Assembly: GCA_900548695.1 (NCBI GenBank)
Contig: URLC01000001.1
Span: 75,878 to 139,877 of the forward strand
DNA: 64,000 nucleotides
Direction of reading: 5' to 3'
Origin: an uncultured Mycoplasmatota bacterium
Lineage (GTDB): Bacteria > Bacillota_I > Bacilli_A > RF39 > UBA660
Within the stretch, counting starts at the first letter, position 1. Every line of letters starts with the position of its first letter. The position numbers and the translations under genes are program-made. Positions 36,456 to 39,756 of this stretch are shown in pieces. The notes under the pieces were generated by a model, which did not search any database, had not been told where the DNA came from, and saw only the letters and a program-made list of their open reading frames with translations.

Positions 36456-37551
36456 TTATCTATTCTTTAAATTTGCTTCTATAAATATATCAATATCTCC
36501 ATCTAATACTTTGGTGACATTACTTGTTTCCGTATTTGTACGATGATCTTTGACCATAGAATATGGATGAAGTACATAACTTCTAATTTGGGACCCAAAA
36601 TTAATATTTGCTTGATTTCCCTTTATTTCATTTAATTCTTGTGCTTGTTCTTCCAGTTTTTTTATTAGCAATTTATTTTTTAAAACTTTTAAGGCTTGCT
36701 CCTTATTTTGAATTTGACTGCGTTCATTTTGACAAGTTACTACAATCTTAGTTGGTAAATGGGTAACTCTTACGGCTGAGTCCGTGGTGTTAACTCCTTG
36801 TCCTCCTGCTCCAGTTGAGCGGTATACATCAATTTTTAAGTCTTTTTCATCTATCTCAATATCAGAATCCTGTTCTATTTCTGGAGTTATTTCTACAGAG
36901 GCAAAAGAGGTATGACGACGATTATTAGAATCAAAAGGAGAAAGTCTTACTAATCTATGAATTCCTTTTTCATTTTTTAAATAGCCATAAGCATTGTGAC
37001 CAATTACTCTAATAGAAACATTTTTTATACCAGCTTCTTCTCCATCTTGATAATCTAAGACTTCTATTTTATATTTTTTCTTTTCGCACCATCTAGTATA
37101 CATGCGATAAAGCATTAAAGCCCAATCACAAGATTCTGTTCCTCCTGCTCCAGGATGAATTTCTAAAATACAGTTATTTTTATCATAAGGACCACTTAAT
37201 AACAATAAAATGTTTAATCTTTCAGCATCTTTATTTATTTCTTTCGTATCTGTTTCTAATAATTTTATACTTTCTACATCCTCTTCCACTTCTAATAACT
37301 CTATTAATTCCATATTATCATTAATTCTTTTTAGTAAACCTTCCATATCATCGATAACAGCTTTTTCTTCATTTAATTCTTTAATTATTTTTTCTGCTGT
37401 TATACGATCACTCCAAAAATTCATATCTTTTGTTTTTTCTTCTAGTTTATGAACATAAAGCTTTTTAGAATCGATGTCAAAGTGACCTCCATAAATCTTC
37501 TAATAAATTTTTATTTTTTTGTAAATCATCTTTAATTTCTCTTAATTCCAT
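36456..37551 (-). CDS. prfB: Peptide chain release factor 2 (two frames joined by programmed +1 frameshift)
   Basis: The upstream frame MELREIKDDLQKNKNLLEDLWRSL ends at an in-frame UGA within GGAGGUCACUUUGAC. The +1 frame continues DIDSKKLYVHKLEEKTKDMNFW..., with GGQ in SPFDSNNRRHTSFASV and a catalytic-domain match. AAGGAG RBS before the ATG at 37551. Confidence 0.9.
37467..37473 (-). promoter_or_regulatory. prfB autoregulatory +1 frameshift site CUU UGA C with upstream SD-like GGAGG
   Basis: Read on the minus strand: tatGGAGGtcaCTTTGAC. This is the classic RF2 recoding context. Confidence 0.85.
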
Positions 37552-37597
37552 ATTACTCTCCTTCTTATTTTGTTCTTTTTCATAAAAACTATGCTAA

Positions 37598-37706
37598 TTC
37601 ACTGTTAAGGTAACACATTTTAGCTTTTTTCTCAATTATTTTTTTATTTTATGTATATATTTTTGTAATTAGCATATAGTATTAGTGAGGAAGGTTCACT
37701 GTTAAG
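37598..37706. repeat. Two exact 12-bp direct repeats TTCACTGTTAAG (37598-37609 and 37695-37706) in prfB upstream / NADAR downstream region
   Basis: Read directly; the copies are 97 bp apart. Confidence 0.5.
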
Positions 37707-37732
37707 TGTGAAGATCCTCTGTAAATAGATAT

Positions 37733-37757
37733 AGGAGCTCAAATGGGCTCCTTTTTT
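37733..37757 (+). terminator. Plus-strand-oriented hairpin terminator AGGAGC-tcaaatgg-GCTCCT + TTTTTT with no plus-strand gene (possible small antisense/intergenic RNA end)
   Basis: Hairpin plus T-run on the plus strand only. The flanking genes are on the minus strand. Confidence 0.3.
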
Positions 37758-37836
37758 GAAAGGACATCGTATTAGTATTATGATGTCTTTTTATATTGAA
37801 TTTTAATATTATAGTTTTTCTATATATTTTGGTTTT

Positions 37837-38331
37837 TTACTTTTTCTTTTTTTTATATTCATCTCTTATTTTCATCCAAAGTTTTCCTAAATTATTTTGT
37901 CCACTTCTATTTGCTCCCCATCCCCAAAAGTTGTCTTTTGGGGAATCTTCCACTATTAGGTAATCTTTTGTTTCTAGTAATTTCTTCAATACATAGGGAT
38001 TCTGTTCTAATTTACATCTTAATATTTCTTCCATTACTCTTAATGACTTTTTTTTCCAATTTTTATCTTGTTTATCTTTGTTATAAAAGCTTATTTTTTG
38101 CGCTTCATGGGCTGAATGACTATTTTTAATTTTTTCGACAATTTCTGGAGATGACTCTATAAAATGAGCTGCTTGGTAAGCTTCTTCGGCAGTTGAGTAC
38201 AAATAGCCATTATATTCAACTTTAAAGGAACTAAAATTATCTAATGGATAAAATTCTCGTGGGTAAAACCCTATAACTTCTTCCATTTTTTCTGTTAACC
38301 ATAAGTCCCTGTATTGTTCCAATCTAATCAT
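37837..38331 (-). CDS. NADAR-domain protein (YbiA/DUF1768 family N-glycosidase / ADP-ribose processing)
   Basis: 164 aa align along their length to E. coli YbiA. Shared blocks: FYPL..DNFS.F, STAEEAYQAAHF, KNW, KLEQ, LLET...LVEDSP.DNFWGWG..RSGQNNLGKLWMKIR. Confidence 0.75.
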   Translation of the reverse strand: MIRLEQYRDLWLTEKMEEVIGFYPREFYPLDNFSSFKVEYNGYLYSTAEEAYQAAHFIESSPEIVEKIKNSHSAHEAQKISFYNKDKQDKNWKKKSLRVMEEILRCKLEQNPYVLKKLLETKDYLIVEDSPKDNFWGWGANRSGQNNLGKLWMKIRDEYKKKKK

Positions 38332-38389
38332 ATATTTACCTTCTTTCTATAGTAAATATACTGTTTAAAGAGGAACTATTATTGTCACA

Positions 38390-38866
38390 TTAAAATTTTT
38401 CTTCTAATATTTCTAATTTTGTTATTCTATTTAAATAAAAGTGTCTTATTTCTTGTTTACTTTCACAAAATGCAGCTACTCCCCATTTTCCTTCCAAAAT
38501 CATTAAATTATATGGTCTAATTTTTCTATATGTTATTTTATTATGTTCTTTTGAATAGTATTCTATATAGCACTTCGTCTTTGATTTAATAGCCTTACTT
38601 AAAATATTGAAAAATTCTTTATTATTCAATGTGATATTTTTCGGCTTAATATATTTTTCAGGTAATTTTATTTCTTGGTTTAGATAGTATCCACCATATG
38701 GTCCTCTTATTGTTTCAATAAAGATACCTGCTAATTCTAGCTCACTTTTGTATTGCCTTATCATTCTTGGAGTAACTTCTAATTTTTCAGATAATTCTTT
38801 AATACTATATTTTTTTCCATTTTGAAGATATTCCAGCATTAATAAAACATTAGAAAGTTTAGACAT
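38390..38866 (-). CDS. Compact HTH-WYL domain transcriptional regulator
   Basis: N-terminus LLMLEYLQNGKKYSIKELSEKLEVTPRMIRQYKSELELAGIFIETIRGPYGGYYL matches the HTH_11-type helix of WYL regulators. C-terminus YRKIRPYNLMILEGKWGVAAFC...RHFYLNRI is WYL-like. Confidence 0.7.
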   Translation of the reverse strand: MSKLSNVLLMLEYLQNGKKYSIKELSEKLEVTPRMIRQYKSELELAGIFIETIRGPYGGYYLNQEIKLPEKYIKPKNITLNNKEFFNILSKAIKSKTKCYIEYYSKEHNKITYRKIRPYNLMILEGKWGVAAFCESKQEIRHFYLNRITKLEILEEKF

Positions 38867-39183
38867 AATATCACCAACTATATTATACTTTAATTAACAA
38901 GAAAAAGATATGTAGCAGATATTAAAATTATATTTTAATCGTATCTATTCTTATTGTTTTTCTACTATTTATAATAATTATTATCTACCACATTTCTTAT
39001 ATTTCTTTTCTGAATCAACTAGAAAAATGAGAAATTCTATTTTTTGTGAACTTTTCTTCCTATTTTCATAGATGTTTAATAATCTTTAATTAGTGCCATG
39101 TAAAGGAATTCATAGGTTTCTTTAAATTCTTAATTACTTTTCCAATTCATTAAACTAAACTTGTATCTAAATCTATCTCTAAT

Positions 39184-39678
39184 TTAAAATAAATTAAATA
39201 AATAATAGTTTTCTTTATATTCATCTCTAAATAATCCACTTTTAATATATTTTCCACCTATATGTTTATAAAAATCATTTGACTTATTTCCATCTAAACA
39301 TCCAATAACTAACTTTTCAATTTTATTTTTCTTTATCATATCTACCGCAAAATTATATAATTTTTTTCCATATCCCTTACCTTGATATTCTTTTAAAATA
39401 TATAATGAATGTATCTCAGCGGCATCTTCATATTTATCTGAATCCAATTCAAAATAAATCCAACCAGCTATTCTATTATTAATTTCCAAAATATAATAAT
39501 TAGGCTGATCAACAATATGTTTTTTTATTTTTTCAGCAGAGTCATTTTCATAATTAAATAAATTATTTAAAAATTCTTCGTTGACAATACCTTTATATGT
39601 GTCGTTCCAAACTGTTGCTATTGCATGAGCTAACTCTTGAGCATCTTCTTTTTTTCTTTTTCTAATTATTGCTTCCAT
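39184..39678 (-). CDS. GNAT family N-acetyltransferase
   Basis: 164 aa with acetyl-CoA motif A LKEYQGKGYGKKLY. Confidence 0.7.
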   Translation of the reverse strand: MEAIIRKRKKEDAQELAHAIATVWNDTYKGIVNEEFLNNLFNYENDSAEKIKKHIVDQPNYYILEINNRIAGWIYFELDSDKYEDAAEIHSLYILKEYQGKGYGKKLYNFAVDMIKKNKIEKLVIGCLDGNKSNDFYKHIGGKYIKSGLFRDEYKENYYLFNLF

Positions 39679-39717
39679 ATTACCACCTAATGTTTATTAT
39701 ATACTAAATAAATATAA

Positions 39718-39756
39718 AAAGATATATCTGGAGTTTTAGCAACCAAATATATCTTT
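39718..39756 (-). terminator. Hairpin AAAGATATAT-(19 nt)-ATATATCTTT with T-run, downstream of secA
   Basis: Read directly. It is followed by a T-run on the minus strand. Confidence 0.4.

Follow-up and report, generated by a model that had tools for sequence, protein, structure and literature searches.

A gene of the NADAR superfamily is located at positions 37837-38331 of the 64-kb stretch of DNA analyzed here (to be referred to as the window), on the minus strand. Genes and elements given below with coordinates are on the minus strand as well, unless another strand is indicated. The open reading frame (ORF) is intact and encodes a protein of 164 amino acids (aa), with an ATG start codon and a GAAGG ribosome-binding site 8 nt on its 5′ side (read from the sequence as GAAGGT, 38338-38343). 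The 5′ neighbor on the same strand, beyond a 58-nt spacer, encodes a winged helix-turn-helix (wHTH) regulator with a WYL domain (38390-38866). The 3′ neighbor, after 285 nt, is prfB (main frame 36456-37424, with a leader up to 37551). The regulator and the NADAR gene form a cassette that is conserved in related bacteria, the gene behind the regulator is exchanged from locus to locus, and the NADAR protein lacks a lysine that is catalytic elsewhere in the superfamily.

The NADAR (YbiA-family) assignment is based on matches in Pfam, NCBIfam and the Protein Data Bank (PDB), on the fold, and on a mapping of the active-site residues. The match to Pfam family PF08719 (E 3.9e-26, 92.7 bits, cut-off 35.1) establishes membership in the superfamily. 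The NCBIfam model TIGR02464, a 'riboflavin biosynthesis intermediates N-glycosidase' domain, is matched above its threshold (88.1 bits, cut-off 73.7). The closest solved relative is E. coli YbiA (PDB 2b3w; E 4e-15, 29% identity). The AlphaFold model (pLDDT 78) has a YbiA-like α+β fold, with a TM score in Foldseek of 0.73 (E 1e-7) against 2b3w, and of 0.68 against the structure of the P. nicotianae NADAR in complex with ADP-ribose (8bau). A glutamate in the last β-strand, Glu128 in the segment LIVEDS (aligned to LVEHT of YbiA), identifies the protein as being of the YbiA type.

The earlier note had described this gene as an orphan, located between a WYL regulator and prfB and with no adjacent ADP-ribosyltransferase (ART) toxin, and the description holds for the ORF, its domain matches and its flanks. 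There is no toxin-sized ORF in either of the gaps flanking the gene. The small ORFs in these gaps do exceed the 21 aa given earlier as their upper limit, as the largest are a 32-aa ORF (with a TTG start), a 21-aa ORF, the 24-aa prfB leader and a 55-aa antisense ORF of low complexity. The latter (37796-37963, plus strand) is Phe-rich, overlaps the NADAR gene at its 3′ end in antisense orientation, and is probably spurious. No ART or DarT Pfam domain is found in a scan of ten unannotated ORFs within the 64 kb of the window, which has 29% G+C and housekeeping genes (ribosomal proteins, glycolysis genes, uvrAB, and the series hpf-secA...prfB-ftsEX).

For a NADAR protein of the YbiA type, the absence of a toxin partner is the normal state and not an anomaly, and the suggestion that an unpaired gene is unusual does not stand. 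Most bacterial NADARs are stand-alone genes, and linkage to DarT appears to be exclusive to the BC4488 subfamily (PMC11125620; PMC11543638). YbiA-like NADARs are regarded as housekeeping proteins (PMC11825919). The protein in the window belongs to a tight clade of more than 1200 proteins (identity roughly 70-80%) found in gut Bacilli that are uncultured and low in G+C, Candidatus Faecimonas being an example.

There is no assembly gap or contig break near the NADAR gene. The closest relative (94% identity, locus L010) has the order secA-WYL-NADAR-prfB, with no toxin and no GNAT gene. No ART neighbor is found beside the NADAR gene in about 80 species-level loci, nor in 19 metagenome WYL-NADAR loci. 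Two features of the DarT1-associated type, an Asp residue two positions before the conserved Glu and a basic N-terminal extension, are absent from the protein. These observations speak against a true antitoxin, with its ART (or phosphoribosyltransferase, PRTase) toxin located elsewhere in the genome or lost in the assembly. Such a reading can point to the antitoxins that do exist among YbiA-type NADARs (YarT-YbiA of myxobacteria; PMC11125620) and to the fact that the visible part of the genome is 64 kb, and it is very improbable. Between an antitoxin stripped of its toxin and an inducible enzyme of clean-up, the latter is the more likely.

The WYL regulator and the conserved spacer

The regulator is a short wHTH-WYL transcription factor of 158 aa, as indicated by Pfam (PF13280, WYL, E 1.5e-13; HTH_11, E 9e-9), by PADLOC (WYL, E 3e-32) and by a structure model. 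The model (pLDDT 88) has structural matches to BrxR, PafBC, CapW and DriD, with a probability of 1.0. The protein belongs to a closely knit family that has more than 1800 members, with a uniform length of 158 aa.

BrxR, PafBC, CapW and DriD are reported to be sensors of single-stranded DNA (ssDNA) (PMC11662680, and the abstracts of further papers). The WCX domain contributes to the ssDNA crevice in WYL regulators (PMC11662680), and it is missing at the C terminus of the protein in the window. Based on an alignment to BrxR (7qfz), two of the four residues that contact ssDNA in CapW (S144, R164, R168 and R184) are retained, as Ser105 and Arg141. With no WCX domain and only these two contact residues, the ligand of the WYL domain may differ from that of the described regulators; it could be ssDNA, ssRNA or a nucleotide. 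Damage-inducible expression of a NADAR gene does have a precedent, as E. coli ybiA sits in a LexA-controlled operon (PMC11125620).

The organization of the cassette was counted in the 74 of 80 species-level loci with sufficient upstream DNA. A homolog of the regulator (66-75% identity) is located directly 5′ of the NADAR gene, on the same strand and with a spacer of about 58 nt, in 18 of these 74 loci. The genes around the pair differ between loci, and the WYL gene is the sole recurrent neighbor. A relative with 81% identity, for example, has a WYL-NADAR-HD arrangement at an unrelated place in its genome. A full-text literature search for WYL and NADAR together gave no description of such a cassette, and the compact WYL-regulated NADAR cassette appears to be undescribed before. 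It is not phage-borne in the IMG/VR collection of viral contigs, which has no relative of the WYL protein and has NADARs only at 46% identity or less.

The spacer contains a conserved 16-nt motif, TGACAATAATAGTTCC (38372-38387), with the family consensus TGACATAaATAtTTCC; the consensus and its information content were computed over 69 unique spacers. The motif begins 3 nt past the stop codon of the WYL gene. A search of 1.7 Mb of fetched loci, with one mismatch allowed, gives 94 matches, and 91 of them adjoin a WYL stop codon. The spacer copy is the single match in the window with two or fewer mismatches; there is no second good copy there, and matches with three mismatches are at chance level. 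The motif is likely the binding site of the WYL regulator, to judge from its sequence conservation and placement.

A TAnnnT box is located about 11 nt 3′ of the motif, at a fixed distance from it in all cargo classes. The box in the window, TATATT (38355-38360), is the predicted -10 hexamer of a promoter for the NADAR gene within the spacer, and the motif would then cover roughly positions -39 to -24 of this cargo promoter. The site at the place of the -35 element recalls PafBC-type promoters, as outlined in PMC11804915. The motif as a canonical -35 element is ruled out by the spacing of about 22 nt to the -10 box.

The WYL gene has a predicted promoter of its own. Its -10 region, AGTATAATATAG (38878-38889), lies directly 5′ of the GGTGAT ribosome-binding site of this gene, and the box is conserved in relatives: TG(G)TATAAT precedes the WYL gene in some 20 loci whose upstream genes are unrelated. 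When the upstream regions are compared, an inverted repeat (hairpin) is seen ahead of this promoter as well (38917-38946). At the matching place the relatives have a GACTAG-N-CTAGTC hairpin with a T-run, whatever the upstream gene. This arrangement points to a constitutive promoter for the WYL gene and a separate, regulator-dependent promoter for the cargo. The spacer of many relatives folds into a hairpin that has the -10 box in its loop and in which TTCCTC of the motif is either base-paired to the ribosome-binding site of the cargo gene or part of a terminator. At the level of the family, such a hairpin would keep read-through from the promoter of the WYL gene silent. Overall, the conserved cassette and the spacer motif lend good comparative support to the WYL control of the NADAR gene that was suggested earlier.

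There are variations of this organization, three of which represent decayed forms of the cassette. Two loci (L065 and L069) have lost the WYL gene, and the NADAR gene is fused directly to a WYL-type hairpin and TATAAT promoter. In another locus (L072) the full spacer with the motif is present upstream of the NADAR gene, yet there is no WYL gene, which suggests that the regulator may act in trans. One genome has two complete WYL-NADAR cassettes within 4 kb (L046, 7457-11477).

Exchange of the cargo gene

The gene located after the WYL gene was surveyed in a few long contigs first and then in 80 metagenome loci, of which 73 could be scored. Ham1/ITPase is the most frequent cargo (24 loci), followed by NADAR (18 loci, with a HAD-NADAR fusion in one more), a 343-aa protein with no family assignment (13), CYTH (8) and a HAD/NT5C-like nucleotidase (7); the remaining two loci have other genes. 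The cargo is in the same orientation as the WYL gene in 73/73 loci, and the gap between them is 20-130 nt except in four. The 16-nt motif is found in every cargo class.

The cargo genes often have operon partners of their own in the relatives. The NADAR operons include NADAR>HD, NADAR>pyrophosphatase, NADAR>NUDIX, NADAR>histidine phosphatase, CYTH>NADAR, and HAD>NADAR or a fusion of the two. The Ham1 operons are Ham1>NUDIX, Ham1>MazG and SIS-like>Ham1. The 343-aa protein (L149-L159, L165 and L177) shows SIS-like motifs by eye (GGSK..., AISASGNT), and Ham1 always follows 1 nt later; it has no match in Pfam and no sequence match in the PDB.

Ham1/ITPase, MazG, NUDIX/MutT and HD enzymes are classic "house-cleaning" nucleotide hydrolases. 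The NADAR protein therefore fills a slot that is otherwise held by enzymes that sanitize the nucleotide pool. The phosphohydrolases to which it is repeatedly coupled would process the nucleotide before or after cleavage of the glycosidic bond. As the same regulator, with the same site, elsewhere drives Ham1/ITPase, HAD/NT5C nucleotidase and CYTH, enzymes for the destruction of abnormal nucleotides, an inducible clean-up enzyme is the most likely of the functions considered for the NADAR protein.

A sensor with a swappable effector is also the layout of a minimal inducible defense system. Phage infection would lead the WYL regulator to derepress a nucleotide-destroying effector (NADAR, Ham1, CYTH or NT5C), the phage would be starved of nucleotides, and the effector would be swapped between loci, as happens in other systems of defense. 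The WYL regulators BrxR and CapW govern defense systems (PMC11662680), a combination of NADAR and PRTase, DS-32, is a validated defense system in E. coli (preprint 10.1101/2025.01.08.631726), and the NADAR protein in the window has a weak PADLOC match to PDC-M42C (E 2.5e-8). However, its score with the DS-32 NADAR model is far under the cut-off (80 vs 240 bits), and the cassette sits amid housekeeping genes (secA and prfB), with no recurrent defense neighbors seen. Ham1, MazG and NUDIX are classic sanitizers with narrow substrate ranges. Moreover, in L065 and L069 the NADAR gene is on a constitutive WYL-type promoter, which would be harmful were the effector toxic. Defense by nucleotide depletion is considered quite improbable.

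Active site and proposed function of the NADAR protein

The active-site residues of the protein are mapped to Glu49, Trp92, Glu128, Asp133 and Trp136, with His56 at the position of the usual lysine. The equivalents of the first five residues are widely conserved. In a set of 161 diverse NADAR domains, E49, D133 and W136 are each the usual residue in 156, W92 in 153 and E128 in 145. All five are retained in the clade of the window protein, and E49 is invariant there.

There is one clear difference, at position 56. This position is seven residues past the first catalytic Glu (E43 in the P. nicotianae protein and E88 in the E. coli C7 protein). In the structure of the P. nicotianae NADAR with ADP-ribose, the lysine here (K50) touches the adenine and the pyrophosphate, and its equivalent in the C7 protein, K95, is essential for the hydrolysis of ADP-ribosylated guanine (PMC11543638). 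Position 56 is Lys in 138 and Arg in 11 of the 161 diverse domains, being basic in 93% of them (149/161). In the window protein it is His, and the catalytic, phosphate-binding lysine is missing. The clade of the window protein has S, L, G, H, R or C at this position, and occasionally K; the residue is fixed within each sub-clade, and deeper branches retain K. In the WYL-linked NADARs it is L, H, S, R or I. The catalytic Asp of the DarT1-associated type (D171 in the C7 protein), two residues ahead of the conserved Glu, is also replaced, by Ile126, which is invariant in the clade. The comparison of structure and active site that had been proposed thus gives a YbiA fold with Glu49, Trp92, Glu128, Asp133 and Trp136 in place, and an exception at His56.

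As the lysine is repeatedly replaced in an otherwise highly conserved enzyme, the clade probably needs no contact with the adenosine diphosphate of a substrate. A ribosyl or phosphoribosyl substrate fits better with the loss of the lysine than does ADP-ribose.

This loss bears directly on a role in stand-alone repair or immunity, in which the NADAR protein would strip ADP-ribose from guanine or cytosine of DNA or RNA after the action of exogenous toxins or phage enzymes, and the WYL regulator would induce it on ssDNA or damage. The earlier note had put forward such an immunity against ADP-ribosylation, and the literature already contains the proposal that stand-alone NADARs are guards against ARTs of exogenous origin. 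The role is the main and a serious rival to a clean-up function, if on the unlikely side, and it is weakened by the absence of the essential lysine. All the tested NADAR subtypes, including YbiA types, hydrolyze ADP-ribosylated guanine on DNA and RNA (PMC11125620; PMC11833690), and some NADARs act on ADP-ribosylated cytidine too (PMC12945103). Conservation of E49, W92, E128, D133 and W136, the sensing of ssDNA by characterized WYL regulators (PMC11662680), and the HAD and HisPhos phosphatases that accompany NADAR in the relatives are consistent with it. The predicted systems of an ADP-ribosylglycohydrolase (ARG) and a phosphatase under WYL/Nudix regulators (PMC9503650) share the layout. On the other hand, the lysine whose mutation abolishes hydrolysis of ADP-ribosylated guanine is missing from most of the clade as well as from the window protein, and the co-regulated Ham1, MazG-linked, CYTH and NT5C-type enzymes have no known role in the removal of ADP-ribose. 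In addition, E. coli YbiA gives cells no protection from DarT1 (PMC11125620).

A phosphoribosyl substrate would not require the ADP-contacting lysine, and this is compatible with a housekeeping N-glycosidase for riboflavin intermediates, like E. coli YbiA and its plant homologs, that happens to be located behind a WYL regulator. The match to TIGR02464, the closeness to YbiA among solved structures and the housekeeping status of YbiA-like NADARs point in the same direction. However, no riboflavin gene is found among the neighbors, in the window or in the roughly 80 species loci, and the regulator is shared with ITPase, CYTH and NT5C cargo and not with cofactor genes. The riboflavin role suggested earlier thus lacks support from the neighboring genes and is a poor candidate, while the context of the cassette favors its broader form, an N-glycosidase for small molecules.

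We tentatively favor a clean-up N-glycosidase that is probably inducible by damage and would act on abnormal bases or nucleotides that are ribosylated; its gene is the cargo of a regulator-controlled cassette. A strong promoter of the WYL gene itself, with an extended -10 element, would supply the regulator, and the regulator would control the second promoter, in the 58-nt spacer, through the 16-nt site at the -35 position. This spacer promoter would drive the NADAR gene. On sensing a damage signal with its WYL domain, for which ssDNA is the ligand in every WYL regulator characterized, the regulator would switch on the NADAR gene, and the enzyme would cut the bond between ribose and base in aberrant ribosylated or phosphoribosylated bases or nucleotides.

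Several points weigh against the clean-up function. WYL regulators are also typical of phage-defense systems. The regulator in the window terminates at residue 158, five residues past the WYL domain, and so has no WCX domain. In it, Lys127 and Ala131 take the place of the arginines that flank the Trp residue (RWHVR), and the consensus of the family has Glu at the first of these two positions. The motif and the -10 box of the cargo promoter are an unusual distance apart, and the spacer hairpin of the relatives is weak in the window itself and not significant (z -0.8). The cassette in the window holds the NADAR gene alone, and the link to phosphohydrolases rests on the relatives. Removal of ADP-ribose from guanine is an in vitro activity of all NADARs tested so far, the YbiA of E. 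coli among them (PMC11125620; PMC11833690), and His56 could still contact a phosphate.

In an unlikely but broader reading, the WYL regulator, the 16-nt site and the swappable cargo would represent an undescribed set of conflict modules of uncultured gut Bacilli, each with one sensor and one effector. The effectors would be inducible, either as nucleotide-depleting anti-phage enzymes or as erasers of ribosyl adducts made by toxins or phages, and the lysine-less NADAR would have a new substrate, such as phosphoribosylated bases.

A stand-alone NADAR of the YbiA type is itself ordinary, and the surroundings of the gene are of more interest than the orphan state from which the analysis started. 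The cassette, the sanitizing cargoes and the loss of the lysine together give a concrete hypothesis, an inducible N-glycosidase for abnormal nucleotides. The minimal regulator, with 158 aa, no WCX domain and a candidate DNA site, would be a convenient model for sensing by WYL domains. If the repair role were true instead, abundant gut bacteria would have in this cassette a stand-alone enzyme, under regulation, that erases ADP-ribosylation from nucleic acids.

Surroundings of the locus and comparison with known systems

A terminator-like GC hairpin (37733-37752) lies 3′ of the NADAR gene and is also read as a terminator on the plus strand; the terminator scan gives 3 sites, compared to 0.4 expected. 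No RNA family of Rfam is found within or near the cassette, in a scan of the whole window at gathering thresholds and a scan of 37300-39300 at E≤1. The gap between the NADAR gene and prfB also contains an exact 12-nt direct repeat, CTTAACAGTGAA, at 37598-37609 and 37695-37706, with the copies 97 nt apart. L010 has a single copy, the 190 other loci lack it, and the repeat might be a promoter or regulatory element of prfB. The prfB gene itself (36456-37551) has the classic programmed +1 frameshift. Its 24-codon leader starts at the ATG at 37551 and ends in CTT TGA C (37482-37476) with GGAGG ahead, and the main frame is at 37424-36456.

On the other side of the cassette, the WYL gene is separated from secA by a GNAT acetyltransferase gene (39184-39678). 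L010 has no such gene at the same spot, which indicates a separate insertion. GNAT genes adjoin the cassette elsewhere too (L097, L054, L070 and L100). The secA and prfB genes are adjacent in many Firmicutes. The interval between them (36456-42340 in the window) recurrently hosts the NADAR clade, in about 9 of 80 species (including L010, L030, L034, L039, L058 and L062). These extend to species with only 52% identity in secA, and the accompanying genes vary. Further away is an agr-like quorum-sensing locus (43456-46264), with AgrB (43456-44055, plus strand; Pfam E 5e-32) adjoining ORFs of 439 and 254 aa on the opposite strand. In L010, genes for a histidine kinase and for a response regulator of the LytTR type are the counterparts of these two ORFs, and a 40-aa ORF is located between AgrB and the kinase.

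Among the described proteins, E. coli YbiA (2b3w) has the same fold and size as the NADAR protein in the window, no large extension, the Glu in the last strand (E128) and a stand-alone gene. Control of ybiA by the damage regulator LexA parallels that of the window gene by a WYL protein, the two regulators being different. YbiA keeps the lysine (SEHYFQAQKF), whereas the window protein has His56 (AEEAYQAAHF), and the clade of the latter has a conserved extra N-terminal helix (MIKLEQYRDxW) that is not in YbiA.

The DarT1-associated NADAR, DarG1 (BC4488 type; E. coli C7 and G. lovleyi), shares the superfamily and the first catalytic Glu with the window protein. In comparison, the window protein has no adjacent DarT1, no catalytic Asp (Ile126), no catalytic lysine and no long, basic N-terminal extension for DNA binding, and a profile search of the PDB with it did not retrieve the DarG1 structure. 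In the YarT-YbiA pair a small ART is located directly 3′ of the NADAR gene; in the window this place is taken by 285 nt of non-coding DNA with hairpins, in which no ORF exceeds 32 aa, followed by prfB. The stand-alone NADAR gene in the sigma-70 operon of pathogenic E. coli (Cihlova et al. 2024, PMC11125620) is likewise inserted among core information-processing genes. The window gene, however, is in another operon, has its own regulator and promoter, and belongs to a different subfamily. DS-32 combines a PRTase with a NADAR; the window protein has 80.3 bits with the corresponding model, NF053876 (cut-off 240), and there is no PRTase neighbor. With this score far below the cut-off and the weak match to PDC-M42C, the defense libraries do not file the NADAR gene as a known defense gene.

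The regulator shares its wHTH and WYL domains, and its location beside the genes that it would control, with PafBC, DriD, CapW and BrxR. A site that replaces the -35 element recalls PafBC-type activation. Compared to these proteins, the regulator in the window is only 158 aa long, ends without a WCX domain and has K/E and A in place of the arginines on either side of the Trp residue, and the site that it would bind lacks palindromic symmetry.

Of the layouts described so far, the most similar one is that of the predicted ARG-phosphatase systems, which are proposed to counter ADP-ribosylation (Iyer et al. 2022, PMC9503650). WYL regulators are discussed in that study only for ARG-centered systems, and the systems themselves are predictions (PMC9503650). 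Unlike in them, the hydrolase in the window is a NADAR, with no ARG match, the regulator also drives Ham1, CYTH and NT5C genes, and there are no chaperone or effector genes. Phosphatase coupling of the ARG type is found in the relatives of the window NADAR, with HAD fused or adjacent or HisPhos adjacent, though not in the window itself. As in the ARG systems, a one-component HTH-WYL regulator stands beside an enzyme that cleaves ribosyl linkages.

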